DNA of 64,000 bases, from NCBI GenBank assembly GCA_029258825.1, contig JAPDKA010000003.1, forward strand, positions 2,065 to 66,064, written 5' to 3'. The first letter of the stretch is position 1. Every line of letters starts with the position of its first letter. Under the pieces are notes generated by a model that was given only the letters and a program-made list of their open reading frames with translations, did not search any database and was not told the origin of the DNA. The translations under genes were made by a program, and so were the position numbers. The stretch comes from an archaeon. GTDB lineage: Archaea; Nanobdellota; Nanobdellia; Pacearchaeales; JAPDKA01. Below, in pieces: positions 5,996 through 55,584 of the stretch.

Positions 5996-7138
5996 ATGGA
6001 AATATTAGAAAAAACGAACCCTCACTGGTTTGATGAAGAAGATGAAGATTTAATTAAATGGAAAAATAAAACTATCCATATAATCCCAAAATGGATTTAT
6101 GAACTTTCTCTCCAGCCTTTCAGTCTTAATTTTGTTCTTGGCCCTAGAAGGGTTGGCAAAACAACAGGTATAAAGTTGTTAATTCAAGAATTAATTAAAA
6201 GAAAAGTAAAAAGAAAGGAAATAGTTTATGTTAATTGCGACCTCATATCAGAACTCTCTTTCTTTCAACGTATATTAAATTATATCTCTGAAAATAATTT
6301 TAAATTTATTTTCATAGATGAAGCTACGAGCTTAAAAGAGTGGTGGAAGCCCCTTAAAGGATTTATAGACGCTGGCTTGTTCAAAGACAAGGTGATAGTA
6401 GTTACAGGATCGATTACGCTTAAAGTAAAAAAACATGCAGAATTTTTTCCTGGAAGAAAAGGCAAGGGAAAAACAATAGAGGTTTTACCGCTTTCTTTTT
6501 CACAATATGTTAAATTGTTTAATGCTAAAAAGCTTTCTGAAATAAGGAGATTATTTAAAAAATATTTAATAACAGGTGGTTTTCTTGGAGCTTTAGACAA
6601 TGAAAGTGCATTTATGAAAGAATTAATTGATGCAATTAAAAGTGAAATCTTAAAGGTTGGATTAAGAGAAAAACTTGTATTTCAAATTATGAGTTCCTTA
6701 CTAAGAAAAATACCTTCTGCTTTATCCTATCAAAGTATTGCAAGCGAAATTGGAATCGATTATAAGACAGTTGCCCACTATCTTGAAACGCTTGAGGAAA
6801 TGTACTTGCTGGGAATTGCTTATTGGAAAGAAAAACAGGTAAAATGGAGAAAAGAAAAGAAAATATTTTTTAGAGACGCTTTTTTATTTAATACTTTCAA
6901 ATTTTGGGTATCTACAAAGCCTTTAGAAAGTGCTTTATATGAGCATATAGTTCAAGAACATTTGTTCAGAAAATTTGGCGAAATCTATTATTATCGTAAC
7001 AAGTATGAGATTGACTGTATAGCAGGTAACATGAAAGTTGAAGTTAAAGCAGGCAAGCCTTATCGAAAGTATCCGCGTGGTGTTAAGGTTGTTGATGAGG
7101 ACAATATAGCTGAATTTTTGTTAGAGTTAGAAAAATAA
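5996..7138 (+). CDS. AAA+ ATPase, COG1373 family (AAA_14 + DUF4143)
   Basis: Walker A GPRRVGKTT, Walker B FIFIDEAT. Paralog of 1575..2882. Confidence 0.7.
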   Translation: MEILEKTNPHWFDEEDEDLIKWKNKTIHIIPKWIYELSLQPFSLNFVLGPRRVGKTTGIKLLIQELIKRKVKRKEIVYVNCDLISELSFFQRILNYISENNFKFIFIDEATSLKEWWKPLKGFIDAGLFKDKVIVVTGSITLKVKKHAEFFPGRKGKGKTIEVLPLSFSQYVKLFNAKKLSEIRRLFKKYLITGGFLGALDNESAFMKELIDAIKSEILKVGLREKLVFQIMSSLLRKIPSALSYQSIASEIGIDYKTVAHYLETLEEMYLLGIAYWKEKQVKWRKEKKIFFRDAFLFNTFKFWVSTKPLESALYEHIVQEHLFRKFGEIYYYRNKYEIDCIAGNMKVEVKAGKPYRKYPRGVKVVDEDNIAEFLLELEK

Positions 7139-7258: not shown

Positions 7259-8526
7259 ATGTTTGATGAAGCATTTGTGATAGAATATTTCGAAAAATTA
7301 TTCGAGAAATTAAAAAAAGAAAAAATAAGGCAAAGAGAACTAAAAATTTCTTTTATAAAAGGAAAAGCCACCGCAATTATTGGCCCTAGGAGGTCAGGAA
7401 AAACTTACTTTGTTCTTAAATTTTTAAAAGAGAATGAATTTATTTTGATTTAGAACATGCAGCATTTAAGGATTCAACTTATAAAGAATTTTTTGAAATC
7501 ATCTCCATTTATGAAGAAAGATTTAAGATTAAAGTAAAAAATGTCCTGCTTGATGAAATTCAAAAGATCGAAAGTTGGGAATCCCTAGTAAGGAGCTTAA
7601 TAGATAGTGGTTACCACGTAATTGTCACTGGTTCAAGTTCAAAATTAGTAAGTAAGGAGATTGCTACACAGCTTAGGGGAAGAAGCTTAAGCTATTTTCT
7701 TTTTCCTCTAAGTTTTAGAGAATATCTAGAATTTCAAAATTTTAAACTCAAAAAACCAATTTCTTTATCAGAAAAAGTCAAAATAATTAATTTTCTGAAA
7801 AAATACTTAGAGTGGGGGGCTTATCCAGAGGTATTGCTTGAATGGAGTAAGAAAGAGAAAATTTTGAGAGAATATTTCGAAACAATCTTGCAAAAAGATT
7901 TTATAGAGAGATTCGAAGTAGTTAATGTAGAAATAGCAAGACTAATTTTTGAATTTGTGTTTCAGAATTTTTCTAAAGAAATAAGCATTAATAAAATTGC
8001 AAATTTTGTTTCTTCCAAGCTTAGGAAGGATGTAAAAAATATTGTTTATAAATATGTTGAAAAACTCCTAGATAGTTTCTCAGTATTCTTCATAGAAAAG
8101 TTTGAAAGTATCTATAAGAGAAAAAGTTTTATGAAAAAGATTTATATTTGTGATATTGGTCTTTCAAACATAATCGGTTTTGAGAAAGATATAGGCAAGA
8201 GAATGGAAAACACAATATTCCTAGAGTTAGTAAGGAAAACTAATGAAAAACCACTTATGGAAATTTTCTACTGGAAAGATTACCAGCAAAGAGAAGTAGA
8301 TTTTGTTGTTAAACAAGGCACAAAAGTTAAACAACTTATACAAGTAACTTATGCTTCTGAAAAGGATGAAATTGATAAGCGTGAAATTAGAGCATTGTTA
8401 AAAGCATCAGAGCTGTTAAGGTGCAAAAACTTACTTGTTATTACTTGGGATTACGAGAGTGAAGAAATTGTTAATGGTAAGAAAATTAAGTTTATGCCTT
8501 TATGGAAATGGTTGTTGAAAATTTAA
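7259..8526 (+). pseudogene. COG1373 AAA+ ATPase paralog disrupted by a single-nucleotide frameshift in a T-homopolymer (about 7439-7446)
   Basis: Frame A (7259-7453) encodes the Walker A GPRRSGKTY and then hits TAG. Frame B is open from 7438 to 8526 with no start codon and continues YFDLEHAAFKD...LLDEIQK...VTGSSS... collinear with the paralogs. Adding one T to the run gaatttattttgat restores EFIFDLEH. The ORF track splits this into 7259..7453 and a Met-started 7834..8526. Confidence 0.7.
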
Positions 8527-16950: not shown

Positions 16951-17028
16951 TTCACCTCTTTTTTTCGCTTTCTTTTCCTTTCTTTGCCTTTTCTTTTCTG
17001 TTTTTATTTTTTAAAATAACTGATAAAG

Positions 17029-17133
17029 TGGGCCCGGTCGGATTTGAACCGACGACCCCTGGTTTTCTTAGACCTGCCAAAATGGCAGTGGCCATATAAG
17101 ACCAGTGCTCTAACCAGGCTGAGCTACGGGCCC
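17029..17133 (-). tRNA. tRNA-Ile, anticodon UAU, with an approximately 30-nt intron at the canonical 37/38 position
   Basis: The reverse complement reads GGGCCCG-TA-GCTC-AGCCTGGTTA-GAGC-A-CTGGT-CTTATA[intron TGGCCACTGCCATTTTGGCAGGTCTAAGAA]A-ACCAG-GGGTC-GTCGG-TTCAAAT-CCGAC-CGGGCCC-A. It folds as a standard cloverleaf: 7-bp acceptor stem, D-arm, 5-bp anticodon stem, T-arm GTCGG/CCGAC, positions 34-36 = TAT, U33, A37. The intron contains a CTGCCA/TGGCAG helix consistent with a BHB motif. No encoded CCA. Confidence 0.8.
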
Positions 17134-17270
17134 ACCTAGTGTATACTACATAAATTGGTTTTAAAAGTTTTTCTTCAAAAGTTTTTCTCTACGATTTTTG
17201 GATAAAACTGTAAATAAGTAACCAAACAACTAACAAAATATTTAAAAATCATCATTGCCTAACAAACAAC

Positions 17271-18713: not shown

Positions 18714-19046
18714 TTATATTTTAACAATATTCAAATTGAATTGCTCAAGCATAAACTCGAAATGTTTCTCTGTATGACCAAACTGGATTAAGGCAATCTT
18801 GCTATATTTTTGCTTTAGCATGTTTACTGCATTGAGTGCAAGATCGCAGAAACCATAACAAGTATTGAGCCAAATAAAGATAGCACATTTATGCTTTATT
18901 TTTTTATTTAGCTCATCAACGATGGAAGTCGCAAATTGCTTTATGCCGTCTGGCAATTGTAAAATAATGGCATCATAGCCATTCTTGCTTATTATAGCAG
19001 CGATTTTATCTATATCTAACTCAAAAGGTAATGTCGCTTTTGCCAT
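18714..19046 (-). CDS. dph2: diphthamide synthase Dph2-like N-terminal domain only (truncated; possible gene remnant)
   Basis: YDAIILQLPDGIKQ...HKCAIFIWLNTCYGFCDLA...IALIQFGHTEKHF matches the N-terminal domain of archaeal Dph2 (LIQSPEGL...NYGACD...ALIHLGH). The ORF is only 110 aa against about 340 aa for full Dph2. Confidence 0.55.
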   Translation of the reverse strand: MAKATLPFELDIDKIAAIISKNGYDAIILQLPDGIKQFATSIVDELNKKIKHKCAIFIWLNTCYGFCDLALNAVNMLKQKYSKIALIQFGHTEKHFEFMLEQFNLNIVKI

Positions 19047-29542: not shown

Positions 29543-30997
29543 TTAACCTTTCAAAACGCCGAGAGGGGTAAAACGAGCAATTTTGATGTTTATACCATAA
29601 CCAACAACAGAATCAACTACTGCATCAACATCTTTGTATGCTTCAGGTGTTTCTTCTGCCAAACCCTTAAAGCCAGGACTTCTTGTTAATATGCCTCTCT
29701 TCTCTAAACGCTCTTTAACTTCTTTGCCTCTAAATAACTTTAATGCTTTATGCCTTGACATAGTCCTGCCCGAACCATGACAGCTACTACCAAATGTTTC
29801 ACGCATAGCTTTTTCTGTTCCTTCAAGTAAATAGCTAGCAGTACCCATACTACCAGCAATGAGCACAGGCATATCAGGAAAACTTCTTGTTGCACCTTTA
29901 CGATGCACATAGAGCCACTGCTGCTTACTTGTGCCAGGCAAAAAGTGCTTTTCATATTTAACAATATTATGACATATACTATAAATGAGATGCATATCTA
30001 AATCCTCCCATGAACTACCAAATACTTTTTCAAAGCTTTGTCTTGTCCAATGCAAAATGATTTGCCTGTTAGTGAATGCAAAATTAACTGCAGCTTGCAT
30101 TGCTTTAAAATAATCCTGACCTTCTTTACTGTTGACAGGAGCACAAACAAGTTGAGGATCCGGCAATTTAATGTTGTATTTTTTAACAGCACTTGCGTGA
30201 ATCTTCAAATAATCTGTTGCAACTTGATGGCCTAGTCCTCTTGAACCTGTATGAAGCATAATTGTTATTTGCCCTTCATGTGTAATGCCATATTTCTTCG
30301 CTCTTGCCTTATCATAAATTTTGTCAACTCTCTGTATTTCAAGAAAGTGATTACCACTGCCTAAAGTGCCAAGCTGTTCTAAACCACGACGTTTTGCAAG
30401 ATCGCTAACTTTACTTGCATCAGCACCATGCATCACGCCATGTTCTTCAGTCGCTTTTTTATCTTTTTCATTTGCGAATCCGTGCTGTATTGCCCAATCA
30501 ACGCCATTAGCAAGAACTTGATCAAGCTCATGAATGCTTAACTTAAGCCTTCCAGTTGCACCAACACCACAAGGAATAGCATCAAACAATACATCCAACA
30601 ATTTACTAAGTTTTGGTTTGACATCATCAACGCTAAGGTTTGTCCTTATTAACGACACACCACAATTAATATCAAAGCCACACATACCAGCACTAATAAC
30701 ACCATCCTCATTAAAAGCACCGACAGCGCCCATAGGCAAACCATAACCCCAATGCATGTCAGGCATAGCAAGAACAGGCTCAACCACACCAGGAAGCATG
30801 GCAACATTACTAAGTTGCTGCACAGCTTGATCTTCGGCAGCATCAATAATTGCTTTATTTGCGATTATTTTTGCATTAACATGCATTCCAGCACGGGCTG
30901 TTTTTGGCAATAACCATTCATAATCGCTAATTTTTCTCAATTTTTCCTTCCACATAATGCTTAAACACAGTAAGGGTTTAAAAATGTAGCGAGACAA
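29543..30997 (-). CDS. rtcB: RtcB RNA ligase (tRNA-splicing ligase)
   Basis: RtcB signatures DMHWGYG, CHGSGR, GVCAP, HNH-like. The likely true start is MWKEK (cat 30953-30955). Confidence 0.85.
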   Translation of the reverse strand: MSRYIFKPLLCLSIMWKEKLRKISDYEWLLPKTARAGMHVNAKIIANKAIIDAAEDQAVQQLSNVAMLPGVVEPVLAMPDMHWGYGLPMGAVGAFNEDGVISAGMCGFDINCGVSLIRTNLSVDDVKPKLSKLLDVLFDAIPCGVGATGRLKLSIHELDQVLANGVDWAIQHGFANEKDKKATEEHGVMHGADASKVSDLAKRRGLEQLGTLGSGNHFLEIQRVDKIYDKARAKKYGITHEGQITIMLHTGSRGLGHQVATDYLKIHASAVKKYNIKLPDPQLVCAPVNSKEGQDYFKAMQAAVNFAFTNRQIILHWTRQSFEKVFGSSWEDLDMHLIYSICHNIVKYEKHFLPGTSKQQWLYVHRKGATRSFPDMPVLIAGSMGTASYLLEGTEKAMRETFGSSCHGSGRTMSRHKALKLFRGKEVKERLEKRGILTRSPGFKGLAEETPEAYKDVDAVVDSVVGYGINIKIARFTPLGVLKG

Positions 30998-31041: not shown

Positions 31042-31518
31042 ATGAAAATAATTGTCACGTATGGTGTTGGAAAAGCCAGCACAGAGTTGGCAGCATTTCA
31101 CAATGCATTGAAAGATGCAGGCATAGAAATGTTCAACATTATAAAATTAAGTTCTGTCATTCCGGCCAATGCTACAGTTATAGTAGACGAAAACAAACAG
31201 CTTATTAATCAATTAAAGAAAAATGCAAAAGTGGGCGATAAACTTTATGCTGTGATAGCTGAAAAAGCCGGTAACAAAGTAGCAGCAGGTCTTGGATGGA
31301 GCATAACAGATAACGGTGGTATTTTTGTGGAGCATGTTGGTAAAAATAAGCAGGAAGTTGAAATGCTGATAAGAAAAAGTCTATCAGATATAGGCTTGAA
31401 CAATGTGCAAATGAAAATTGTTGAAGCAGCAACACAAAGCGAAAGCGAAATTGCTTGTGCAGTCGTTTGTGCCGTATATGCTATTGGGGGGTGGGATAAC
31501 TGTAAAAAAATTTATTAA
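31042..31518 (+). CDS. pdaD: pyruvoyl-dependent arginine decarboxylase
   Basis: GVGKASTELAAFHNALKDAGIEMFNIIKLSSVIP resembles PdaD, including the Ser-Ser self-cleavage site. 158 aa. Confidence 0.7.
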   Translation: MKIIVTYGVGKASTELAAFHNALKDAGIEMFNIIKLSSVIPANATVIVDENKQLINQLKKNAKVGDKLYAVIAEKAGNKVAAGLGWSITDNGGIFVEHVGKNKQEVEMLIRKSLSDIGLNNVQMKIVEAATQSESEIACAVVCAVYAIGGWDNCKKIY

Positions 31519-40730: not shown

Positions 40731-41072
40731 TTAATATTTGAACTTCCTTTCATAATTCTTATGATCAAGCCATTCCAAAATTATTAGAAGAATAATTACA
40801 TTACTGCCTTTTATAGTATAAATTAATCTCCAAGCATTGGGAAGGTTGTATTTCCATAGATTATCAAGTTTTCCAAATCTTTTGTGATATTCTTTGGGAA
40901 TTAATCTCTTCGGAATTTGAATACCACAAAAAGGATTTTCTTCTAAATCTCCAAAAGCTCTTTCTAACCACTCTCTTAATTTTTTGTCTTCAGTTTTTGA
41001 GTTTTTTAATTTTTCAAAGGCTTTTTTAACCCGCTCATCGGCAAATACAACTTTTGACTTCATTTCTTCCAA
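40731..41072 (-). CDS. RelE/ParE-family toxin-like protein
   Basis: LWKYNLPNAWRLIYTIKGSNVIILLIILEWLDHKNY fits the RelE/ParE core (hydrophobic-R-hydrophobic-hydrophobic-Y ... ighR/HK..Y). 113 aa. Confidence 0.5.
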   Translation of the reverse strand: MEEMKSKVVFADERVKKAFEKLKNSKTEDKKLREWLERAFGDLEENPFCGIQIPKRLIPKEYHKRFGKLDNLWKYNLPNAWRLIYTIKGSNVIILLIILEWLDHKNYERKFKY

Positions 41073-41448: not shown

Positions 41449-44034
41449 CTAATCTATTTGTTGCATTTCTTCAAGTTCATTCAAAAATCGGTTGATTGTC
41501 TTGATTAAATGCTCTGGCTGTGTTCTGATTACGCTGCATGCTTGTTTTAACAATATATCGTCAGTAGCATCAATTGCTTCAACGCTATTAAATTGTTTTT
41601 TGAGCAATTCTGTATCTTGCTCGCTTGGCTGCTTTTTTGCTTTTCTTAACTTTCTCAATTTTTTCCATTTTTTAAACAGCAAATCGATTGCATTCGGTAA
41701 TTGTTGTTTGGTTACTCCAAGCAAGGCGCTTGCTTGTTCAAGCAAGCTTGCTATAGCATTGCTCACTTGTTTTGCTTTTTCACCAGCAACAAACACAAGT
41801 CTATATGTATTGTCAGCAATCTTATCAATGCTAACAATCTTTATCATGCCTGCTTCGCTTGTATTGCTTAAATGTGTGCCGCCGCATGCTTCTATGTCAA
41901 GATTGTCTATTTTTACAATACGCAACTCCTCAACAGGTATAGCACCACCTTGGTAAATTCTAAATCCATATTGTTTTTCAGCAGTAGGCCTGGGCAGTAT
42001 TTCTGTAGTTACATCAATAGCATCGTTAATTACCTTATTTGCGATAGCTTCAATTTGCTGTCTTTGATCATCGCTTATCTGCTTGTAATGTGTTATGTCA
42101 AGGCTTGCCTTTTCATCGCTCACAGCACTACCTGTTTGCCATACATGATTGCCAAGAACTTGCCTGCATGCATAATTAATAATGTGAACAGATGTATGAT
42201 GTTTCATAATGCTCAAACGTCTATCAGCATCAATACTGCAGTTAACTTCATCATGCTGTGTTAAACCTTCAGTAGAATTAACAAAATGCACAATAACATT
42301 ATTATATTTCTTCACATCAATAACTTTTGCTGTAGTTTTCCCATTAGAAATGATGCCTGTATCTGCAATCTGCCCGCCAGATTCTGCATAAAATGCTGTT
42401 TTGTCAAGCACAACAGCATTCAGTTTATGGTTTATTGCCACTATGCTTGCTTTGAATTGCTTAATCATCGGTTTTTCATAAAACAATATTTGTGTTGGTT
42501 CAAGTTTGATATGCTTATTGATATGCTCTAACCATTCTTGCCATTCTTGTTTTGCCTGAATTTTTTTCTTTTTTATTGTTTCAAGAAGTTCGTAAAATTC
42601 TGTTGTGTTTAACTGTATGTTGTTTTTCAAAGCATATTCTCGCAGCAATTCTGGCTGGATGCCTTTACTTTGATAAAGTTCAAGAAGTTCATTGCCAGTT
42701 ATAACAGCACTATTTTCTGCTTTTTTCTTTTCGATAACTTTAACTATTAAATTGGCAAGCTTGTTGCGTGTTTCGTTAAATTTTTTCTGTTCTATTTCAA
42801 ATAGCTCTATAAAACGGTCAAGCGTGCCTTCATTAATTTGTTTGAATTTTGCTATTAACTTTAGTTCTAGCTCGACAAGCTTATGCAGATCAATTTCAAT
42901 GTTTAGAGCATGCATGAAGTTGAAGATACGCCTGAATAAAACACGTAAATTATAACCACCGCCAGTGTTGTTGGGCAATGCATAATCGTCTATAGCTAAA
43001 ATAAGACTGCGCAAGTGATCTGCAATGCTGTAAATAGCTTGTAACGGCAGAATATGCTGTTTATATTCACTAGTGCTTATTCCTATTTTTTTTAATGCGT
43101 CGCTAAAATTAACAGTATCTAGTTCAATGCTTGACAGCTTTTTGAGGAATGATGTATAAATTTGTGAATGCTCATCATAGTTGACAAGTTTTTTCAACAG
43201 CTTTAGCGTGTTTGCATAAACAACATCATACTGTGTTAATGTTCGTTGCATTAGCCAAGTAAATCTGCCAAGCCCAGCACCCATATCAATTACTTTTTGT
43301 TTCATAACTGTAAACTGTTCTGGAGTGCCCAGAAATTCTGTAAAGACGCAATTGCCCAGCTCTAAGCCACCAACAAAATATTCTAAGCTGTAACCAAAAG
43401 CACCAGCACCAAGCCAGGCGTCCTCCTTAAATGTTATATGCTCTGGCTTTATTTTGAACACCTCTGTAAGCATTCTGTAATCAAGTTCAACAGCATTTTC
43501 CTTCCAATAACCTTGTTTACCATCATACAAGCTGTGCTGTCCTATCATTACAAAGCTTGTTGCATGCCTGCCTGTTAAGCCTACTTTATCTATGTCATTA
43601 AAACGCAAGCAAAACTGAGGTATGATTAAAGGATTGGCAGGAAACTCAAACACAGTAGCATCGTTAGTTTTGCGCTGGAATGCAACAATACTAGCAAGAG
43701 TAAAGCTCAAACCTGGAAACCACCTGCACACAACAGGATAACTAAGCAAAGCAACATGCCCATTTTTAACAAAAAAGTTCTTGATTGCTTGCCAAGTTTC
43801 AACATAATCTAGTTTGGCATTAGCATAGCTCTTATCGAGAAAAGTATAGCCAACACAGCCAGCATCATTGCAGTAATCTTGCTCAACAACACTCCAAAAA
43901 TATCTGCCGCATTTCTTACATTTTTGCCTTTTGAAGCCATGCTCAATCAAGAAATCAATCTTCCAGTAGTCTTGCCATTTTTGCTGCAGCTGCTTCAACA
44001 GTTGCAATTTCTCTTGCATAGACAAGCAAAGCAC
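41449..44034 (-). CDS. alaS: alanyl-tRNA synthetase, archaeal type
   Basis: Archaeal N-terminus with CKKCGRYFW, the editing-domain HxxxH...C motif (HHTSVHIINYACRQVLGNHVWQTGSAV), and a C-terminal DHHA1-like region. 861 aa. Confidence 0.9.
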   Translation of the reverse strand: MLCLSMQEKLQLLKQLQQKWQDYWKIDFLIEHGFKRQKCKKCGRYFWSVVEQDYCNDAGCVGYTFLDKSYANAKLDYVETWQAIKNFFVKNGHVALLSYPVVCRWFPGLSFTLASIVAFQRKTNDATVFEFPANPLIIPQFCLRFNDIDKVGLTGRHATSFVMIGQHSLYDGKQGYWKENAVELDYRMLTEVFKIKPEHITFKEDAWLGAGAFGYSLEYFVGGLELGNCVFTEFLGTPEQFTVMKQKVIDMGAGLGRFTWLMQRTLTQYDVVYANTLKLLKKLVNYDEHSQIYTSFLKKLSSIELDTVNFSDALKKIGISTSEYKQHILPLQAIYSIADHLRSLILAIDDYALPNNTGGGYNLRVLFRRIFNFMHALNIEIDLHKLVELELKLIAKFKQINEGTLDRFIELFEIEQKKFNETRNKLANLIVKVIEKKKAENSAVITGNELLELYQSKGIQPELLREYALKNNIQLNTTEFYELLETIKKKKIQAKQEWQEWLEHINKHIKLEPTQILFYEKPMIKQFKASIVAINHKLNAVVLDKTAFYAESGGQIADTGIISNGKTTAKVIDVKKYNNVIVHFVNSTEGLTQHDEVNCSIDADRRLSIMKHHTSVHIINYACRQVLGNHVWQTGSAVSDEKASLDITHYKQISDDQRQQIEAIANKVINDAIDVTTEILPRPTAEKQYGFRIYQGGAIPVEELRIVKIDNLDIEACGGTHLSNTSEAGMIKIVSIDKIADNTYRLVFVAGEKAKQVSNAIASLLEQASALLGVTKQQLPNAIDLLFKKWKKLRKLRKAKKQPSEQDTELLKKQFNSVEAIDATDDILLKQACSVIRTQPEHLIKTINRFLNELEEMQQID

Positions 44035-44136
44035 GATGGTTTTATAAATTTAATCAAAAAATAATAGTCATTTCTTAATATATTCACTTAAAAGTAACGA
44101 AAGGTTTATAAATGAAAAAGAATTAGTAATATCATA

Positions 44137-44934
44137 ATGGGAAACACATACAAAAAGAGCCTGGAGAAAATTGTGGAAGAATTAAGAATAGTAGACCAAT
44201 ATATAAAAAAAGAAAAGCCAAATCTTATAGTAGTACCTTTAAGAGGAGCTGCACCATTTATAGACATACTCAATATAATTGATGACGAGTTCCCAAATGA
44301 AATAGTTGAGTACATCATAGCATCAAGTTGCGTAAAAAAAGTGAGGGAGATCATAAAAAAATCTTTATTTAGTCTAATAGTTGATAAATTATTTGATGGT
44401 GGAAAAATAGTTTTTATTGATGAAGTTGTAAGTGGTAATTCCTTGGTAAGGATATATAAGCAATTTCATGCAGCATTGAATGAATATGCTGAAAGAAAAA
44501 TAATTAGCATTTATGGAAAAGACGTTGATATGACTAGGGAAAATATTCAAAACTATAAAGAATCGCTTATTAAAAAATTTGAAGAAAGACATATAGGATT
44601 AGTAGAAAAAAAGAAGGTAAATAAAAACAAAGAATACCTAGAACTTGTTAATGAAGGGATTGTAATCCCTTTTTATGTTCAGCGTATTCCTACAAGGGAT
44701 CAACCAAAATACAGAATAATACATTATAGAGAAAAACCTTTGGAAGAAGATAGAATAAGATATCTTCCTGAAATTGAAAAGGTGGAAGCATCTCAAGAAT
44801 ATTTAGAATTACTAAAGGATGTCGCCATGATTATCGGTAAGGACCCTGAATCTGTAAAGATAAATAATATTGAGAAAATCTTGAACGCAAACGAATGGCC
44901 TAAACTCTATGATGAATTGAAAGAGAGCGTGTAA
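44137..44934 (+). CDS. hypothetical protein with phosphoribosyltransferase-like (PRTase type I) motifs
   Basis: LIVVPLRGAAPF and IVFIDEVVSGNSL resemble the PRPP-binding loop (hydrophobic4-D-D/E-x2-S/T-G). Confidence 0.35.
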   Translation: MGNTYKKSLEKIVEELRIVDQYIKKEKPNLIVVPLRGAAPFIDILNIIDDEFPNEIVEYIIASSCVKKVREIIKKSLFSLIVDKLFDGGKIVFIDEVVSGNSLVRIYKQFHAALNEYAERKIISIYGKDVDMTRENIQNYKESLIKKFEERHIGLVEKKKVNKNKEYLELVNEGIVIPFYVQRIPTRDQPKYRIIHYREKPLEEDRIRYLPEIEKVEASQEYLELLKDVAMIIGKDPESVKINNIEKILNANEWPKLYDELKESV

Positions 44935-44935
44935 A

Positions 44936-45505
44936 TTAACCACTCAATAAATTTTTACTTGATTGTAAGGTTGCTAATTGATTTAACAGGATAGAATAAG
45001 GAGTATCGGCGTCTGCTAAACCGACAAATTGTATTTCAGGCCTTGGTAATGTGCTTCCTGCTGTTTGAATATTAAGAGAAGCTAAACCAACCATTCTCTC
45101 TCCCAAACCTTGAGAGACAGCCACATCAGTTATCTTATATAAAGGAATACTCTTAATCTTTCGTGAAATAACACCTCCTTTAAAGATAACTCTTTGAGTA
45201 GTTATATAATATTCGTAAGTTTTTATTAAGGCTATATTGTATAGAAATATGATTAGTAGCAATATAACAAAACTAACTGGAACAATAATAGTCAAATTTT
45301 GGTGAACCACGAAGAACGCTATACCTATAAATAAAGTAATAAATAAAGCTGGAATTATGGAATCGAAAAACCATAAAACGAGAAGTTTGCCACTTGGACG
45401 ACCCTGATATAAAATCTTTTCATTCTTTTGTAGGGTAAATCGCATAATATCAAAAATTAGCTTAAGCTTTATAAAATTAACGTGATTCTGTAGCAATAAA
45501 TACAC
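44936..45505 (-). CDS. membrane protein with bacterial-type PH domain (YdbS/DUF304-like)
   Basis: Two TM helices followed by ...TTQRVIFKGG...IPLYKITDV.... The likely start is MRFTLQ (M21). Confidence 0.5.
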   Translation of the reverse strand: MYLLLQNHVNFIKLKLIFDIMRFTLQKNEKILYQGRPSGKLLVLWFFDSIIPALFITLFIGIAFFVVHQNLTIIVPVSFVILLLIIFLYNIALIKTYEYYITTQRVIFKGGVISRKIKSIPLYKITDVAVSQGLGERMVGLASLNIQTAGSTLPRPEIQFVGLADADTPYSILLNQLATLQSSKNLLSG

Positions 45506-45577
45506 ATTTTTATTATTTTTGTCTTTGCTTCAACTAGTGAAGAAAATTTTTATAAATTCATTCTGTTTTGAAAATAA

Positions 45578-45937
45578 ATGAAAAACAAATTAGCTTTAAG
45601 TTTGATCATTCTTGTTGTTCTTATTATAGCAATCATTAGCATATTTTACCATTACCAAAACAAACAACAAGCAAACGAGCAGGAAACAAATCTGGAATGG
45701 AAGCAGCTTCCTGATGGAAGGTGGAAGCTGATAGACAAAGCATGCGCTGAAAAAGACATTCCGCAGTACTTGTGCGTAACAAACTGCTTTGACCATTCCC
45801 ATACAGAAATATGGCAACTATGCAAGGATAAAGGCAAAATAATGACAACAAACACAGGCATAGAAGTGCTCTGCTTTTCCTCTGGCTGTCTCCCAAACAT
45901 AGTCAATGGTGAATGCCAAATAATGTGCGTGTCATAA
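45578..45937 (+). CDS. small secreted Cys-rich protein
   Basis: N-terminal TM/signal segment and 10 Cys in the C-terminal 70 aa. Confidence 0.45.
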   Translation: MKNKLALSLIILVVLIIAIISIFYHYQNKQQANEQETNLEWKQLPDGRWKLIDKACAEKDIPQYLCVTNCFDHSHTEIWQLCKDKGKIMTTNTGIEVLCFSSGCLPNIVNGECQIMCVS

Positions 45938-45982
45938 CAGAACAAGTATAGATTTTTAAAACAGAATTGAAATAAATTTTCA

Positions 45983-46393
45983 ATGAAATTATATCATGGA
46001 TCTCCAAAAAAGTTGAAAGTATTAATACCGAAAAAAGCTAAAGGGATAGAAAAATTCGAAAACCAAAAAGCAATTTTCTTGACAAAATCGTTCCTACAGG
46101 CTGCCCTTTATGCTATAGGCAAAACGCTAAAGGGAAAAACAACCTTTGCATTACCTCCCAGAAAGCTTATCATAGTAGGAAAACATAAACCAAAATCTGG
46201 CTATGTGTATGAAGTTAACGTTAAAGCAAAAAGATTGCCGTTAGGTCAATACACCTATGATAAACCAATCAAGGAATTCAAAGTTTACAAAGTAAATCCA
46301 AAAGATTTTGAAAAACACATAATTTACGTTAAAACCAAACAAGAACTGATGAAGCTCGTTGATAAAGAGAAAAAACGAGGGAGTGCGTACTAG
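45983..46393 (+). CDS. hypothetical protein (N-terminal YHGS motif)
   Basis: 136 aa beginning MKLYHGSP, with no confident family. Confidence 0.4.
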   Translation: MKLYHGSPKKLKVLIPKKAKGIEKFENQKAIFLTKSFLQAALYAIGKTLKGKTTFALPPRKLIIVGKHKPKSGYVYEVNVKAKRLPLGQYTYDKPIKEFKVYKVNPKDFEKHIIYVKTKQELMKLVDKEKKRGSAY

Positions 46394-46630
46394 GACAGTC
46401 TCTTTGTGGGGCTTGTTCATAGCTAGGCAAGAGAGGACATTATCACATCATATATTTTAGATAGGAGCCACAAAAAGATGAGGGTTATTGCAATAGTTAT
46501 TACAACTGCAGCAAGCTTTTTAGGGCTCATAAGATAATTAAGAATCTGTCATTTTTATACATTTATCTTGTGTCTTTATTTTGAAGTAATAGCCGAAATA
46601 CTTAAAAAGAATTAAATTTTATCAATTAAC

Positions 46631-46912
46631 ATGAACCGGGATCGAATGATGAGGGGACTGAAAAGAAGAAGAAGGAGAAATTTAGAATATCAACTGGGAG
46701 AACTGGAGAAAGAAGAGATAAGGGTGGTTGATGGTATGTATGAAGGTGTTTATTTTCCCATCATATCTGATCTTTTTGGAATAAATCTTTATGTAACATG
46801 TGGTAATTGTAGAAGAGGGTTTAGACGAAGAGTTGATAGACTTCCAAAATATCTCGTATGCCCTTATTGTGGATCTATTAACCGTTTCAGACGAATACGA
46901 AAAGTTTTCTAA
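46631..46912 (+). CDS. Arg-rich zinc-ribbon protein
   Basis: CGNC...CPYCGS C4 ribbon and an RRRRR N-terminal cluster. Confidence 0.45.
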   Translation: MNRDRMMRGLKRRRRRNLEYQLGELEKEEIRVVDGMYEGVYFPIISDLFGINLYVTCGNCRRGFRRRVDRLPKYLVCPYCGSINRFRRIRKVF

Positions 46913-47043
46913 TTGGTTTTTGAGTGCTTTTTTTAGATTTTATCTAATGCTATGTTGATTTCTTTATTAATGCGTATTCCTTTATTTCAACCACCATTAT
47001 GAGGTTATTTTTCTTTCTCCATAGAAAGAAATTAGGTCAAAAA

Positions 47044-50013
47044 TTATTTTTTATGAATTACTTCAAAAATCGATTTAATAGTATCGAACCAATATTTTTT
47101 ATAACCCTCCGAAGGCTTATTTTTATCTTTTGTAAACAAGAAAAGAAATACTCTTATTTTGAAATTGTTATGAGTAAAAGCCTTAGGTTTTTCTTTTTCT
47201 TCAAAGAATTTTCTAAACCAGTCAACTTTATGTTGATATTCTGATCTACCTATGCCTTTTGGATCTACAAACACAATAAAGTAGTTGTCTCCCTTAGCAA
47301 ACCAAAATATAAAATCTGGTTTAAACTTTCGAATTTTATTCGATTCAGGATCATAATAAGGTATAAAAACCTCGTCAAAATATTCATCTATTTTACTGAA
47401 TAACCACCAATCTACAGATATACTTTTTATATTTTTCTTAAGGAATTGCTCTAATTTCTCAATAAATTCTACTTCACTTTTTGTTTTTATCACATGTTTA
47501 ATGTAATCAATCTTTTCTTTTTCTGAAAGGATTAAGGGAACATAATAATGGTTTATTATATGTTTTATTCTCAAATCTTTAAATCTTTCTTCCTTTGAAA
47601 GTCTGGCAAGTTTTTCTATTTCGGTAGCGAATTCGTCTATTTTTATCTCACCTTTTTCAAGCATAATTTTTAACTCCTCTTTTCTCTTCTCAGAAAACCT
47701 AAATTGAGAAACATTTCTTATTTTTTCTTTTAGCTCATTCATTTCTTCTTTCGTTTTTAGAAATACTTTAATTTTCTTAAAATGCACTATTTCCTCCTCG
47801 AGTTTCTTAAATCTATCAAATTCTTCGATATCCAAATTAAAGTGACTTATTAATTTTTGTGCTATTACAAATAAGGGTAAAGTCGGATTGTCAACGATTC
47901 TATAATATGTGTTTGCATTTTGAAAACTTTTTTTTATATGTTGCAACAATTCTACAGACAAATTGTTTTGCATAAGTAGAACTCTATCGTCTATTTCATT
48001 AAAGTATTTTTGAAGTAATTCATAATCTTGTTGAGATATAATGAACTTCTGTGGTTCTTTTATTTGATACAATTTTTTACCAGAGAATTTATAAACAGGA
48101 ATTAAAAGTATTTTCTCTTTAGCTTCTTCAACCACTTCCAATTCAAGAGTTTCTTCTATCTCTTTCTCTATTTTTAATGTTTTTATAACTTCTTCCAGGG
48201 CACTTCTGTTTGTACCGAAAATGAATAACGTCTCTAAAGGCTGAACTAAAAAATCTCCACCAATTTCCATGAACATTTCGTCATCTTCTCCTCTATTGTA
48301 AAGATTTTTTAACCTCTTTCTTCTATCTTTAATAGGTTCTATTCTTACTCCTCTTCCAACAGATTGAATGACGAATTTCTTTGCTTCTGTACCAGTACCT
48401 ATATTTATGAAGAGAATTATATTTGGTCTGTTTGAATCCCATCCCTCATAGAAAGCTCTAGATCCCATTAAAATGCTTATATCTTCTCTTCTATCTAGCT
48501 CCTCAAATACACTCTTATCTTCAAATTGTTCGGTCGGAGTATATTTGTAATCTTTCAAGTTGTCTTTAACCCATTTTAGTGCGTTTCCTATTCTAATTAA
48601 TGCAAATGCTTTATGACTACTTTTCAATTTAAGTACTATTTCTTTATTCGTGCCTGGAATAAGGGTATATTCTACTTGACCAAATGAAGAAGAATTATAA
48701 ACAAATTTTAATATGTCTTGGAGAGTTATCTTTTTTAGAATATCTCTTTGAATGATTAGTGGAATACTCTCATACAATAGCAAAGGTTTTTCAGAAAGTT
48801 CTTGTAAGATTTCCTCTTTAGCCTCCTCAAAAATCTTGGTGTTGACATCACCTTTTCCAATTTTTTCTATTTCTTCAAAAAATAATTTTAGATCTGGTTT
48901 CTCTTGCTTTGCTTCTATAAGATTGACTGTGTTAACTAGAGTTAACATCAATGGCTCGTGATAAACATTTTTTACAACTTTTCTTATCTTTTTTGCAATT
49001 TTCTTAACATAAGTCAAAAGAATCAAAGATTTCAAAACAATTTTTTGCTTTTCAGCTCTATTATAATCTTCCTTTTCCCTAAAAGCCCTTATCTCTTGTT
49101 TTAAAATATAAATGTGCTTTCCGTAACCTTGGGAAATAAACTTTTCTAAGTTAAAGTTATAAGCAGTAGTTATTCTATCGTGCTCATCAGTAAATGTTGC
49201 TGAAAAATTAAATAAAAATCCGTTTCTACTCATTATGGAGTAAATAAATTTAGCTTTTGATTCTTGCATTTTACCTTTGTGTGCTTCATCCAAAATTATG
49301 TACCAGTTACCATTATTTTCATAATTTCTAAAATCTATTCTTACGATTCCTTTCTCGTCCACAACATTTGTTGATTTGTAGAAAAATACACAAATTTGAT
49401 TGAAATATGAAATTAAACTCTCTTTTTTTATTTTATCATACTCTGTCAACTCTGCAAGATTTACTTTAAATCCCCTTTCCATTGCCAATTCATTAAATTC
49501 TTCTATATGCTTCTTTAATTGATTTATTAAATCATCTCTATGAGTCAAAATTAGAATATCTTTCTTCGGAATTTCTCCAGCATCCATCAATTTTTTTAGA
49601 ACTTCTATTAATTTTACTATCAACAAAGTTTTCCCGCTTCCGGTAGCCATCCAAAAGGCGGCTCTGTTTATAAAATTCTTGAATTTTATATTTCCATCTT
49701 CTATTGGATAATATTCCTGAAGAATATTGGCTATTTTTCTCTTAACCTTTGCTAATTTTATATCTAAATTTCTTTCTAAATCTTCATCTAAACCATTAAG
49801 CACATATCTTTGATAAAATTTTGATTTATCTGCTTGATCTTCTTTGAAGAAAAGATAAAGTACTTTAATAGCATTTTTCAGTCCTTCTTGTTGAAAATCC
49901 CAAAGTTTTTTCTTTTTTGAAAAACTTACTGTATCTAATAAACTCCAAGGGGTAGGTAAATCATCAAAATTTATTTCTTCAACTATTGATTGGAGGATGG
50001 GTCTAAGGATCAT
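47044..50013 (-). CDS. res: Type III restriction enzyme Res-like protein: SF2 DEAH helicase with C-terminal PD-(D/E)xK nuclease
   Basis: Q-motif LWDFQQEGL, Walker A WMATGSGKT, DEAH box ILDEAHKG, motif III SAT, motif VI QSVGRGVRI. C-terminal FKPDFIFWF...IVFVDPKG is a PD...D-x-K nuclease motif. 989 aa. Confidence 0.75.
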   Translation of the reverse strand: MILRPILQSIVEEINFDDLPTPWSLLDTVSFSKKKKLWDFQQEGLKNAIKVLYLFFKEDQADKSKFYQRYVLNGLDEDLERNLDIKLAKVKRKIANILQEYYPIEDGNIKFKNFINRAAFWMATGSGKTLLIVKLIEVLKKLMDAGEIPKKDILILTHRDDLINQLKKHIEEFNELAMERGFKVNLAELTEYDKIKKESLISYFNQICVFFYKSTNVVDEKGIVRIDFRNYENNGNWYIILDEAHKGKMQESKAKFIYSIMSRNGFLFNFSATFTDEHDRITTAYNFNLEKFISQGYGKHIYILKQEIRAFREKEDYNRAEKQKIVLKSLILLTYVKKIAKKIRKVVKNVYHEPLMLTLVNTVNLIEAKQEKPDLKLFFEEIEKIGKGDVNTKIFEEAKEEILQELSEKPLLLYESIPLIIQRDILKKITLQDILKFVYNSSSFGQVEYTLIPGTNKEIVLKLKSSHKAFALIRIGNALKWVKDNLKDYKYTPTEQFEDKSVFEELDRREDISILMGSRAFYEGWDSNRPNIILFINIGTGTEAKKFVIQSVGRGVRIEPIKDRRKRLKNLYNRGEDDEMFMEIGGDFLVQPLETLFIFGTNRSALEEVIKTLKIEKEIEETLELEVVEEAKEKILLIPVYKFSGKKLYQIKEPQKFIISQQDYELLQKYFNEIDDRVLLMQNNLSVELLQHIKKSFQNANTYYRIVDNPTLPLFVIAQKLISHFNLDIEEFDRFKKLEEEIVHFKKIKVFLKTKEEMNELKEKIRNVSQFRFSEKRKEELKIMLEKGEIKIDEFATEIEKLARLSKEERFKDLRIKHIINHYYVPLILSEKEKIDYIKHVIKTKSEVEFIEKLEQFLKKNIKSISVDWWLFSKIDEYFDEVFIPYYDPESNKIRKFKPDFIFWFAKGDNYFIVFVDPKGIGRSEYQHKVDWFRKFFEEKEKPKAFTHNNFKIRVFLFLFTKDKNKPSEGYKKYWFDTIKSIFEVIHKK

Positions 50014-50720
50014 AGTTTTTCACCAAAGTGTTTCTTATGAAGCTCTTTAATTAAATCTAAAATGTCTTGAAAATTAGTCTCCTCTATTTCTTTTTTAGTA
50101 GCGATATGATAAAGTGAATGTGCCATTTCATTAGCTCTCTCTTTAAATCTATCGGCTAATTGACATATTCTTTCTACAATTTTTCTTTCACTTTCAAAAT
50201 CCTTGCTATAGATACTAAGATTTTTCAATAAAACATTGAAATCGTGATTTCTTTTTCTATTAAAGTCAAAATACTTTTCTTTATGTTCTTTCTTCTTTTC
50301 CGGATATTTTTTCCGTAGAATTTCTACTATCAAGTTTTCTAACACTTTTCTCATTAATACAAAACAGGCAGTATAACATTTATGGGTGTATGTTTTATTG
50401 ATCTCATTGATATGAGCTTTTAGAAATTTGTTGTTAGTTTCAAATTTTGCAATTTCTATGATTTTTCTTTTTTTATATTGTTTAGGTATTTTAATAGTAA
50501 CCTTTTCTATTTTTATATTTTCCATCGACTTTCTATCTTCTTCTGATAAATATTTTGCAACAGAAATTCCTTTTTTTTTAGCAAATATATGTGCTGCGGC
50601 ATTTATTGTAAGTTGGGGGTAGTCCCTTCGTATTTCTGATAGTTTAGTTCTGATACTTCTTTCTTTACATCCGGTTCTTTTTTTTAAAATTTCTAAAATT
50701 TTAGGATTAAGTCTTTTCAT
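50010..50720 (-). CDS. HEPN-domain protein, DUF4145-like (restriction-system-associated)
   Basis: YTACFVLMRKVLENLIVEIL...FKERANEMAHSLYH has the DUF4145-type conserved helix and Rx5H (RANEMAH). The stop overlaps the res ATG (ATGA). Confidence 0.5.
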   Translation of the reverse strand: MKRLNPKILEILKKRTGCKERSIRTKLSEIRRDYPQLTINAAAHIFAKKKGISVAKYLSEEDRKSMENIKIEKVTIKIPKQYKKRKIIEIAKFETNNKFLKAHINEINKTYTHKCYTACFVLMRKVLENLIVEILRKKYPEKKKEHKEKYFDFNRKRNHDFNVLLKNLSIYSKDFESERKIVERICQLADRFKERANEMAHSLYHIATKKEIEETNFQDILDLIKELHKKHFGEKL

Positions 50721-50994
50721 TTTTATCGCTTGATTTCTTACGTTTTGAATAAAGGTAAGATGAAACGCTTCCTCGGTCTTTATATCCTAGAATATCGGCT
50801 ATTTCTGTTGGTGTGAAATTGAGAGAATGTAGTATTTTAACTGAAGTTTCAACTGTAAATTCTTTTTTACCTAAAATTTTGTGCAACTCTATAAAAAATC
50901 TAATAATCGCATTTAATCTTTTTATAACTTTTATGTTCTCGTTTTCTTCGCTCAAACGTTTTTTACTTTTTCTTTGTTTTTTCATCTTTAACAC
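50707..50994 (-). CDS. mini HTH protein, paralog 4 of a tandem array (sigma70-r4/LuxR/HTH_10-like)
   Basis: A hydrophobic helix LNAIIRFFIEL followed by NFTPTEIADILGYKDRGSVSSYL. Overlaps its neighbours at both ends. Confidence 0.5.
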   Translation of the reverse strand: MLKMKKQRKSKKRLSEENENIKVIKRLNAIIRFFIELHKILGKKEFTVETSVKILHSLNFTPTEIADILGYKDRGSVSSYLYSKRKKSSDKNEKT

Positions 50995-51160
50995 CTTTTA
51001 TTTTACTTAAAGGAAGAATGTGACGTACAGTACTATCGTCAATATTTAAAATTTTTCCAATATCTTTTGAGGTAAGACCAACTTGTGCCAGTTGCAGAAT
51101 TAACAAAATAGTCAATTTTTTGTCGATCTCTTCTAACTTTTTTAATATTTTTTCATTCAT
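50963..51160 (-). CDS. mini HTH protein, paralog 3
   Basis: LTILLILQLAQVGLTSKDIGKILNIDDSTVRHIL. Confidence 0.5.
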   Translation of the reverse strand: MNEKILKKLEEIDKKLTILLILQLAQVGLTSKDIGKILNIDDSTVRHILPLSKIKGVKDEKTKKK

Positions 51161-51386
51161 TTTTCTTACCTCTTTTTAATAAGGATTTTTCTTTAGCCAC
51201 ATATTTTTCGGAGATGTCGAGTATTTTAGCAATGTCTTTATTACTTAGACCAAATTTAGATAATAGTTTTACCCCCTCTTTGATTGTGAGTTGTTTACCT
51301 TTAAGATTTAAAAATATAAGTACACTTAATTTTGCGCTTATTTCTTTGAATATTTTTTCTATCTCCCCTACCATTTTATTCACCAT
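51153..51386 (-). CDS. mini HTH protein, paralog 2 (closest to the LuxR/GerE-type consensus)
   Basis: LSVLIFLNL...LTIKEGVKLLSKFGLSNKDIAKILDISEKYVAKEKS resembles GLxNKEIAxxLxISxxTV. Confidence 0.55.
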   Translation of the reverse strand: MVNKMVGEIEKIFKEISAKLSVLIFLNLKGKQLTIKEGVKLLSKFGLSNKDIAKILDISEKYVAKEKSLLKRGKKNE

Positions 51387-51630
51387 TTAAAGCTTTCTTT
51401 AATTTTTCTCTTCGTTTTTTAATTGTTGAAATCTCAACTGCTATATAGGATGGTTTTTTGTTTAGTAATTGTGCAATTTCCTTATAGTTTAATCCTGCAT
51501 TATACAAGGTTGCAATTTTTTCTCTAAGTGTAATTTCTTTTTCTGTATAACCTTCTCTCAAATCTATAAGTAACGCTATAATCATGTTAAGCTTCTTTAG
51601 TAATTGTTCACGAAATTCTTTTTCTTCCAT
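51376..51630 (-). CDS. mini HTH protein, paralog 1
   Basis: MIIALLIDL...ITLREKIATLYNAGLNYKEIAQLLNKKPSYIAVEIS. Confidence 0.55.
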   Translation of the reverse strand: MEEKEFREQLLKKLNMIIALLIDLREGYTEKEITLREKIATLYNAGLNYKEIAQLLNKKPSYIAVEISTIKKRREKLKKALNGE

Positions 51631-51736
51631 AGTAATATTTTAACTAAATTAAACTTTAAAAACTTTTTGGTTATTGTTTTTTTTCCTTGAAAAATGCATT
51701 TTTCAAAAATGTGAAATTTAGTTTTATTTAGTTAAG

Positions 51737-54229: not shown

Positions 54230-54335
54230 ACTTTTTTAACCTTTTCTATCCCCGCACAGTCAAAAATCCTGCCGACTCAAAACCAACCTTACCAACCATA
54301 TTATAGAGCTTAATGAATTTAATGAATTTTACGTT

Positions 54336-55580
54336 TTACTTTAGTATGTATTTCCACAATGGAACGTATTCAATTTTATTTTCCTTTTTTTCAATATCCT
54401 CAGTTATTATTAAAATTTTCTTTGGTTTAAATTTTTTCTCAAAATAGGAGATATTTCTTATTTCGTTTTTTCCTATTTTCTTTCTGTACTTAACCTCTAT
54501 ACCAACAACATCTTTTCCGTTAACCACGAAGTCTACTTCCTTATTACCTTCTCTCCAATAGTATTTTGCTTGACTCTCAAACAAAACCAAATTTTCTGCA
54601 ATCTTTCCTTTTTCCTCAAAACCGTAAACAAGAGAAAAACAAGGGTGCGAAGGATAATACCTCTTCAATTTTCTTGACGAAGCCCTCCTAGAACCCTTAA
54701 AGTTCCTCAGACTCTTTATTAAAAATCCGTTCTCCAAATAAAAAAGATAATTACTTAAGGCCTGTCTAGTAATGGCCAACTCGTTTGCCACCTCATTTAA
54801 ATTAATCATTATTCCTGGCATATTAGCAATTATTTCGACAATCTTTCCAACTATTTCTGGTTCCCTAACATTAAAAAGCTGTGTAATATCCTTTAATACA
54901 ATCATATCTATTATACCCTCTTTCAAATATCTTTTTGCCAAAGTTTCATTTGCATTAATAATCTCTGGAAAAGGTCTAAGCAAATAGTTATTTAACTCTA
55001 TTTCTACCTCTCTTTTCCACAACCTGACATTTTCTCTGATTTTCTTAATATCTTTACCTTTTAACTCTAAAAATTCTTCAAACAATAAAGGAGTCAAATA
55101 AAAATAAAAGATTCTTCCAGCCAGGCTTTCCTTAGCTTTTAACATAACATTAAGAGAAGCAGATCCAGAAACGAAAAACTTCATATTAGGAAAAGCATCA
55201 TAATAAATCTTTAATTTATTCTGCCAATCTTTCAATTTTTGTATTTCATCGAGAAAAACAAAAATTTTCTCTTTTTGAAGGCTCTTAAGCAAGATTTCCT
55301 TTTCATAAAAGTCAAAAAGTTCTTCTAAACTTATAGAGGATTCATCAAAAGAAAAATAAAGAATATTTAAAGGATTAATTCCTCTCTTAATAAGATAATC
55401 AATTACTTGATACATCAAAGTTGTCTTTCCTGTTCTCCTAAGCCCTACTACGGCTATTATTTGTCTTACTTTCAAATATTTCAAAATTTCGCTAAAAAGA
55501 TTTCTCTTAAATTCTGGAACAAGTTCTTTCCTTACTTCCCCCTCCTTCCACCAAGGATTAAGCATCTCTATTACTTTCAT
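54336..55580 (-). CDS. AAA+ ATPase, COG1373 family (AAA_14 + DUF4143)
   Basis: Walker A GLRRTGKTT and Walker B FVFLDEIQ. Fourth paralog in the window. Confidence 0.7.
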   Translation of the reverse strand: MKVIEMLNPWWKEGEVRKELVPEFKRNLFSEILKYLKVRQIIAVVGLRRTGKTTLMYQVIDYLIKRGINPLNILYFSFDESSISLEELFDFYEKEILLKSLQKEKIFVFLDEIQKLKDWQNKLKIYYDAFPNMKFFVSGSASLNVMLKAKESLAGRIFYFYLTPLLFEEFLELKGKDIKKIRENVRLWKREVEIELNNYLLRPFPEIINANETLAKRYLKEGIIDMIVLKDITQLFNVREPEIVGKIVEIIANMPGIMINLNEVANELAITRQALSNYLFYLENGFLIKSLRNFKGSRRASSRKLKRYYPSHPCFSLVYGFEEKGKIAENLVLFESQAKYYWREGNKEVDFVVNGKDVVGIEVKYRKKIGKNEIRNISYFEKKFKPKKILIITEDIEKKENKIEYVPLWKYILK

Positions 55581-55584
55581 ATTA

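Follow-up and report, generated by a model that had tools for sequence, protein, structure and literature searches.

The minus-strand locus at 17029..17133 of the window, by which we mean the whole 64-kb stretch of DNA analyzed here, is very probably a functional gene for an AUA-decoding tRNA-Ile3(UAU) of a low-GC DPANN-type archaeon, and this is the best explanation of the evidence taken as a whole. According to the scheme that we propose, the gene would be transcribed from the minus strand, probably by means of a TATA-like box located about 30 nt upstream. The resulting 105-nt precursor would fold in such a way that C32-A35 pair with UAAG of the intron and form a strict helix-bulge-helix-bulge-helix. 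The archaeal splicing endonuclease would then cut in each of the two bulges of 3 nt, on the 3' side of A37 and on the 5' side of A38, with the release of 30 nt, and RtcB, encoded 12 kb away, would join the two exons in trans. After post-transcriptional addition of the CCA end, the 75-nt class I tRNA would be charged by IleRS and would read AUA, the top isoleucine codon of the window. We infer cleavage and ligation of the precursor, and likewise charging by IleRS and the modification state of U34.

The tRNA gene and its intron

The Rfam tRNA model (RF00005) matched the minus strand at 17133..17029 with a score of 61.7 bits (gathering score 29) and an E value of 5.9e-11. The model was covered in full (positions 1-71 of 71), with a 31-nt insert after CUUAUA, and this was the sole RNA family match at gathering level in the 64-kb window. 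No second tRNA was found in the 64 kb with the Rfam tRNA model, down to E<=1. The pre-tRNA gene is 105 nt long, from G1 at 17133 to A73 at 17029, and reading of the sequence showed no encoded CCA at its 3' end. Exon 1 (positions 1-37; 17095..17133, minus strand) reads 5' to 3' GGGCCCG UA GCUC AGCCUGGUUA GAGC A CUGGU CUUAUA, and thus contains the acceptor strand GGGCCCG, the D arm, the stem CUGGU and the loop nucleotides C32 U33 U34 A35 U36 A37. Exon 2 (positions 38-73; 17029..17064, minus strand) consists of A38, ACCAG, the variable region GGGUC, the T arm GUCGG-UUCAAAU-CCGAC, the acceptor strand CGGGCCC and A73. Both the Rfam alignment and dissection of the arms placed the anticodon U34 A35 U36, which reads AUA, at 17096..17098 on the minus strand, where the plus strand has ATA.

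Without the 30 nt of the intron, the mature RNA is a class I tRNA of 75 nt, and its minimum free energy (MFE) fold is a cloverleaf of -33.9 kcal/mol. The spliced anticodon loop is CUUAUAA, with the UAU anticodon followed by A37. All of the universal tRNA positions were intact (U8, A14, G18-G19, U33, the UUCAAAU T-loop, G53-C61 and A73), and the 5-nt variable region together with A73 identifies the body as class I with an Ile-type discriminator, not as class II Ser or Leu. The original prediction of a tRNA that has an intron and whose UAU anticodon is encoded in the genome was therefore borne out by the Rfam match, the 75-nt cloverleaf and U34 A35 U36. By reading of the flanks, we noted an archaeal TATA-box-like element, TTTTAAAA, at 17159..17166 (minus strand), 26-33 nt upstream of G1, as a putative promoter. 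A T-rich run, TTATTTT, at 17013..17019 (minus strand), 10-16 nt after A73, is a plausible archaeal oligo-T terminator.

The intron (UGGCCACUGCCAUUUUGGCAGGUCUAAGAA, 30 nt; 17065..17094, minus strand) lies at position 37/38, between A37 and A38, where the homologues have inserts of 16-55 nt. The cut sites of archaeal bulge-helix-bulge (BHB) introns are fixed by an established rule, namely that they lie within two 3-nt bulges. Eight registers leave an anticodon loop of 7 nt, and we compared them all. A complete central helix (4/4), an outer run of 5, which is the anticodon stem, and an inner run of 4 were obtained in the 37/38 register alone; the other 7-nt-loop registers would yield Ser or Leu anticodons. 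The 5' strand of the central 4-bp helix is C32 U33 U34 A35 (17097..17100, minus strand), which pairs with the intron UAAG at 17070..17067. This 3' strand (17067..17070, minus strand) comprises intron nucleotides -6 to -3 and was placed by the register as well as by pairing within the family. The CUUA/UAAG helix is bounded by two bulges of 3 nt each, UA/U and AA/A. The 5' bulge consists of U36 A37 / U(+1) (17094..17096, minus strand) and the 3' bulge of A(-2) A(-1) / A38 (17064..17066, minus strand); from the BHB rule, the cuts are predicted after A37 and before A38, respectively. The inner helix h' (17071..17093, minus strand; inner run 4) is formed by GGCC at 17093..17090 with GGUC at 17074..17071, round the hairpin UGCC-AUUUU-GGCA. 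For the anticodon arm, the strict hBHBh' structure was 0.5-0.9 kcal/mol above the MFE. The intron had been proposed to follow position 37 and to measure about 30 nt, and we found exactly this: 30 nt, in the sole BHB register.

A gene for the RtcB tRNA-splicing ligase is present 12 kb from the tRNA (29543..30997, minus strand; Pfam PF01139, E 4e-159, full-length match). We detected no EndA domain among the open reading frames (ORFs) of the 64-kb window with Pfam.

Conservation of the intron register among homologues

We scanned species-representative genomes with a degenerate pattern that consisted of the archaeal-type acceptor GGGCCC, TAGCTCAG, AGC, a 6-nt spacer and YTTATA. The sample of genomes was not random and the counts are lower bounds; the genome of the window itself does not feature among the matches listed. 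There were at least 76 archaeal-labelled matches, nearly all with DPANN labels, and at least 45 bacterial ones, many of them from CPR/Patescibacteria. The DPANN labels among the matches listed were Woesearchaeota, Pacearchaeota, Nanoarchaeia/Nanopusillaceae/Nanobsidianus, Micrarchaeota/Anstonellaceae, Iainarchaeia, Aenigmatarchaeota and Undinarchaeota, and a few of the archaeal matches listed bear only 'archaeon', Methanosarcinales, Euryarchaeota, Methanobacteriota or Acidilobaceae. In 69 of the 76 archaeal matches listed, A37 was immediately followed by an insert with a 3' end that pairs with nucleotides 32-35, while 41 of the 45 bacterial matches listed were intron-less and 4 were unresolved. 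Forty archaeal genes were parsed end to end; their introns had 16-55 nt (median 31), and the variable region of 5 nt and A73 were found in 40 of 40.

Further, we built a splice-site-anchored alignment of the window gene and 65 archaeal homologues, which together gave 63 distinct sequences. Of the alignment cells, 86.3% were paired in the hBHBh' structure and 46.3% in the best slid register, a comparison that is partly circular, as the search pattern fixed nucleotides 32-37 and the anticodon stem placed the 3' cut. None of 500 shuffles reached the observed pairing, a figure that is inflated by kinship among the sequences. Across the 63 distinct sequences, the central helix was 94% paired, the first pair of the inner helix 92% and its second pair 81%, the last with 21 double-sided compensatory AU<->GC changes. 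The BHB motif is thus conserved in this set, with nucleotides 32-37 preset by the search pattern, while the sequence of the intron diverges.

The closest mature tRNA among the matches listed came from a locus labelled Woesearchaeota (L018) and was 93% identical to that of the window; its intron has another sequence and the same architecture. Among the Nanoarchaeota, relatives of N. equitans, introns of 18 nt at 37/38 were found in a Nanobsidianus (L086) and a Nanopusillaceae (L024) gene. At least two clearly archaeal homologues (L017 and L043) had no intron. Synteny was weak: the only genes found again in the vicinity of the tRNA, in L018 and L033, code for a NUDIX hydrolase and for a DNA ligase.

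ARAGORN placed the intron differently. No tRNA was reported at 17029-17133 in its default run, which does not consider introns, and we did not count this empty result against the gene because intron detection was off. With the option -i, ARAGORN v1.2.41 found the gene and called it tRNA-Ser(tga) with a 30-nt intron at 34/35. An intron placed elsewhere by a predictor had been named beforehand as evidence against the UAU anticodon; ARAGORN returned just such a placement, and we rejected its call on the grounds of structure and family conservation. A tRNA-Ser(UGA) gene, in which the 30 nt would form a non-canonical intron at 34/35, seems to us an extremely improbable reading of the locus. The same call was made for 11 homologues, and a register shifted by 3 nt likewise leaves a 7-nt loop, because the flanks of the intron are A/U-rich. 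However, there is no BHB motif at 34/35, where the central helix reaches 3/4 and the outer and inner runs are 1 each. Archaeal tRNA-Ser and tRNA-Leu belong to class II and have a long variable arm, and the discriminator of archaeal tRNA-Ser is G73; here the variable region has 5 nt, the long class II arm is missing and the discriminator is A73. The family speaks against this reading as well, since under 34/35 the 40 homologues would read UGA (34), UGC (5) or UGU (1), and pairing decreased from 86% to 30% when the partners were slid by 3. ARAGORN -i itself named 29 other family members Ile(tat), as compared with the 11 homologous archaeal genes called Ser(tga), e.g. L007, L029 and L034. It picks arbitrarily between two registers which its scoring cannot separate, and we judged the Ser(tga) call to be a register artefact. 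As about a quarter of these genes are labelled tRNA-Ser(tga) by ARAGORN -i, with the intron shifted by 3 nt, the annotation of DPANN genomes faces a systematic hazard. Because of such mislabels, the AUA decoder could be overlooked and too many Ser tRNAs counted in annotated genomes of this group.

The spread of tRNA-Ile(UAU) among archaea turned out to be wider than had been assumed. The original prediction described a genomic UAU anticodon as known from only a few lineages, notably Nanoarchaeum and Korarchaeum, and as a lineage marker. In this form it was not supported, as the tRNA was reported in ARMAN-2, -4 and -5 in 2011 (PMC3239211) and we obtained at least 76 archaeal matches; this gene type marks DPANN-type archaea broadly and is no rare marker. 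The textbook view of UAU as a feature of just two archaea goes back to older surveys of cultured genomes. Among the papers covered by our literature search, we found no DPANN-wide treatment of TiaS or of UAU tRNA-Ile.

We made several further observations on the homologues. In at least 21 of the archaeal ones, the T-loop is interrupted behind GTTCRA by a further insert of some 13-143 nt, followed by the 3' strand of the T-stem, the acceptor strand and A73 (L011, L021, L022, L023, L025, L030, L033, L036, L039, L045, L048, L057, L061, L062, L073, L080, L087, L090, L092, L106 and L114). These are probably two-intron genes, of which the second intron is non-canonical; the window gene has the canonical intron only and no T-loop insert. 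Six contigs labelled 'uncultured Methanosarcinales archaeon' (L011, L046, L048, L062, L065 and L114) bear a tRNA-Ile(UAU) of the DPANN type, and the intron and exons of L048 are nearly identical to those of a Woesearchaeota MAG (L061). To judge by these sequences, this suggests that the Methanosarcinales labels are wrong or that the contigs are mis-binned. Finally, many CPR/Patescibacteria (Saccharibacteria, Falkowbacteria, Uhrbacteria and others; for example L026, L044, L059, L060, L063, L074, L096, L098 and L112) have an intron-less tRNA-Ile(UAU), with the GGGCCC start that the pattern required. It seems that the UAU answer to AUA has come up in each of the two small-genome radiations, CPR and DPANN.

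AUA codons, TiaS and the host

We analyzed the use of AUA in the 60 ORFs of the window (18,173 codons). ATA was the third most frequent codon (41.3 per 1000) and the most used isoleucine codon, with 44% of all isoleucine codons, so the frequent use of AUA that had been pointed out earlier was confirmed. The meaning of the codon was assessed in a MAFFT alignment of the AlaRS encoded in the window with 119 homologues. At the 28 ATA positions, the residues of the homologues were I in 40%, V in 22%, L in 17% and M in 1.8% of cases. ATT columns gave similar values (I 41%, M 3.2%), and ATG columns differed from both, with M in 38%. This agreement of ATA with ATT columns and not with ATG columns indicates that AUA is read as isoleucine in the host, as a UAU tRNA-Ile predicts.

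The window is a segment of an archaeal chromosome with a GC content of 33%. Pfam identified ribosomal proteins, RFC subunits, exosome subunits, the alpha subunit of the proteasome and an ATP-dependent DNA ligase. The synthetases of the window are AlaRS, a class II enzyme of the Asp/Asn/Lys family and one of the Trp/Tyr family, in addition to RtcB; IleRS is not encoded in the 64 kb. The AlaRS (41449-44034, minus strand) showed at most 50% identity to any of 5.8 billion proteins, its own exact match aside, and its nearest named relatives are from Pacearchaeota and Aenigmarchaeota. It has no C-terminal DHHA1 domain, which most archaeal homologues possess; the top five non-self matches, one of them labelled Pacearchaeota, lack it as well. 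Judging from these sequences, the host is a divergent DPANN archaeon, probably near the Woese/Pacearchaeota radiation.

Some other features of the window were noted in passing. An ORF for a ParE-family toxin (40731-41072, minus strand) lies immediately downstream of AlaRS. The stretch at about 44000-56000 has a GC content of 0.28-0.30, as compared with about 0.33-0.35 elsewhere in the window, and encodes a helicase of the ResIII/SNF2 type (989 aa; 47044-50013) and an N6/N4 DNA methylase (830 aa; 51737-54229); its appearance is that of a restriction-modification or defence island. There are three full AAA_14 + DUF4143 ATPase paralogues and one DUF4143-only ORF, located at 1575-2882, 5996-7138, 7834-8526 and 54336-55580. 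A 110-aa ORF at 18714-19046 (minus strand) matched only the first 56 positions of the Dph2 domain, with 31.5 bits against a Pfam threshold of 33.2, and may be a Dph2 remnant or a stand-alone fragment. We considered and rejected the idea that a gene for diphthamide synthesis is disrupted upstream of the tRNA: the additional ORFs on the minus strand had no domain matches and look spurious within a real ORF for a 469-aa membrane protein.

No TiaS domain was found with Pfam among the 60 ORFs of the window, which is a fraction of a genome that likely measures several hundred kb or more. Nor did we find a CAU tRNA or a TiaS domain within the 8-kb flanks of the 76 archaeal homologues listed. One gene of the window, however, codes for a pyruvoyl-dependent arginine decarboxylase (PvlArgDC; 31042-31518, plus strand; PF01862, E 3.6e-25) and is divergently oriented with respect to RtcB (29543-30997, minus strand). 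PvlArgDC makes agmatine, the co-substrate of TiaS. This enzyme does not imply TiaS, because agmatine also feeds polyamine and hypusine synthesis; we take it as a caution against assuming that TiaS is absent, not as a contradiction. Its presence is a notable observation beside an AUA decoder that apparently has no need for agmatidine, and the host may use its agmatine for polyamine or hypusine synthesis instead.

Two rival explanations accept the gene as a tRNA-Ile(UAU) locus and differ in what they make of it. A genuine tRNA-Ile(UAU) could coexist with TiaS and tRNA-Ile2(CAU) encoded elsewhere in the genome, which would give two AUA decoders and signal no alternative strategy. We consider this unlikely. 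Some bacteria bear both tilS and a tRNA-Ile(UAU) gene in one genome, AUA is so frequent here that extra decoding capacity could help, and our view is that of 64 kb in which PvlArgDC is encoded. Nevertheless, the other uses of agmatine make PvlArgDC a weak pointer to TiaS, and neither a TiaS domain nor a CAU tRNA was seen in the window or in the homologue flanks described above. In all of the archaeal cases described, N. equitans, K. cryptofilum and ARMAN-2/4/5, moreover, UAU is accompanied by the loss of both TiaS and the CAU gene (PMC3239211, PMC8450103, PMC3575796). By analogy with them, the UAU tRNA of the host would replace, and not supplement, the TiaS/tRNA-Ile2(CAU) system. There is very little to recommend the other rival, a decaying or silent tRNA pseudogene. 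The gene is known from sequence alone, and the unconstrained MFE fold of the 105-nt precursor was not a cloverleaf, because the intron competes for pairing; with the four arms forced, however, the fold was only 0.2 kcal/mol above the MFE. A high covariance-model score, universal positions that are all intact, a perfect BHB motif and the putative TATA-like and oligo-T elements on either side all argue against decay. In addition, AUA accounts for 44% of isoleucine codons, and the cell therefore needs an AUA decoder. A functional tRNA-Ile3(UAU) gene remains the reading that we prefer.

Comparison with known AUA-decoding systems

In the canonical archaeal system, tRNA-Ile2(CAU) and TiaS do the same job that we assign to the window tRNA, namely the reading of AUA as isoleucine without reading of AUG. 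There, C34 is converted to agmatidine with the use of agmatine and ATP, whereas the window tRNA has a genomic U34; as its wobble base is U in the genome, TiaS would have no substrate on this tRNA. Mandal et al. 2014 observed that a haloarchaeal tRNA-Ile mutated from C34 to U gains cnm5U and binds AUA and AUU, and also AUG (PMC3895270). The mutant was also a poor substrate of IleRS (PMC3895270). Since it bound AUG and was charged poorly, UAU decoders would, by analogy, need some compensating feature as a safeguard.

Bacterial tRNA-Ile(UAU), e.g. that of Mycoplasma mobile, resembles the window tRNA in that UAU replaces the modified-C system and the modifying enzyme is missing (PMC3575796). U34 of the M. 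mobile tRNA is unmodified (PMC3575796). The bacterial genes differ in being intron-less, as seen in the large majority of the bacterial matches listed, and in an acceptor and body of bacterial type.

The nuclear tRNA-Ile(UAU) of eukaryotes is similar in that UAU reads AUA and in that its intron is nearly always situated right after position 37 and pairs with the anticodon. It differs in that modification by PUS1 needs the intron; to our knowledge, no intron dependence of pseudouridine at U34 and U36 has been described in archaea, and Pfam gave no pseudouridine synthase domain among the ORFs of the 64-kb window. The eukaryotic tI(UAU) intron is required for the formation of pseudouridine at positions 34 and 36 by PUS1 (bioRxiv 10.1101/2025.06.17.660180; PMC11912914). 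In the archaeal loci listed, the intron was present in 69 of 76 UAU genes (about 90%), as compared with 15 of 43 (about 35%) of the other tRNAs called by ARAGORN in the same loci. By analogy with eukaryotes, the 37/38 intron might be kept because it is functionally required for U34/U36 modification, so that AUA is read and AUG is not. If this were true, DPANN archaea would use a eukaryote-like, intron-dependent decoding of AUA, and their escape from the AUG misreading seen in the haloarchaeal UAU mutant would be explained. We rate this role as quite unlikely, because introns are frequent in these lineages, the sequences compared are phylogenetically related and the intron is missing from L017 and L043.

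In the archaea N. equitans and K. cryptofilum, as we propose for the host, a UAU isoleucine tRNA stands in for Ile2(CAU); the two species differ in being hyperthermophiles with short introns. The tRNA-Ile(UAU) gene of N. equitans has an intron. In the tRNAscan-SE 2.0 analysis of 217 archaeal genomes, Ile3(UAU) replaces Ile2(CAU) in these two species (PMC8450103). The same two archaea were found in a survey of 167 genomes, which reported an intron in the Korarchaeum gene, a feature that it shares with the gene of the window (PMC6000648).

The closest parallel that we found is ARMAN-2 (Ca. Micrarchaeum acidiphilum). Fujishima et al. 2011 reported that ARMAN-2, -4 and -5 have tRNA-Ile(UAU) and lack TiaS and tRNA-Ile(CAU), and that the ARMAN-2 pre-tRNA-Ile(UAU) has a 25-nt intron at 37/38 with a strict hBHBh' motif, which was cleaved in vitro (PMC3239211). 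ARMAN-2 and the host are both of the DPANN type, and both genes encode UAU and have a single canonical 37/38 intron with a strict hBHBh'. In both cases, the tRNA is interpreted as decoding AUA in place of the TiaS/tRNA-Ile(CAU) system. The introns differ in length (25 nt in ARMAN-2, 30 nt in the window gene) and are unrelated in sequence, and the host of the window belongs to another, low-GC lineage. The ARMAN-2 gene was supported by in vitro cleavage and by a genome-wide check for TiaS, while that of the window is known from 64 kb of sequence. The gene that we describe is an ordinary further example of a type already known from Nanoarchaeum, Korarchaeum and the ARMAN archaea.
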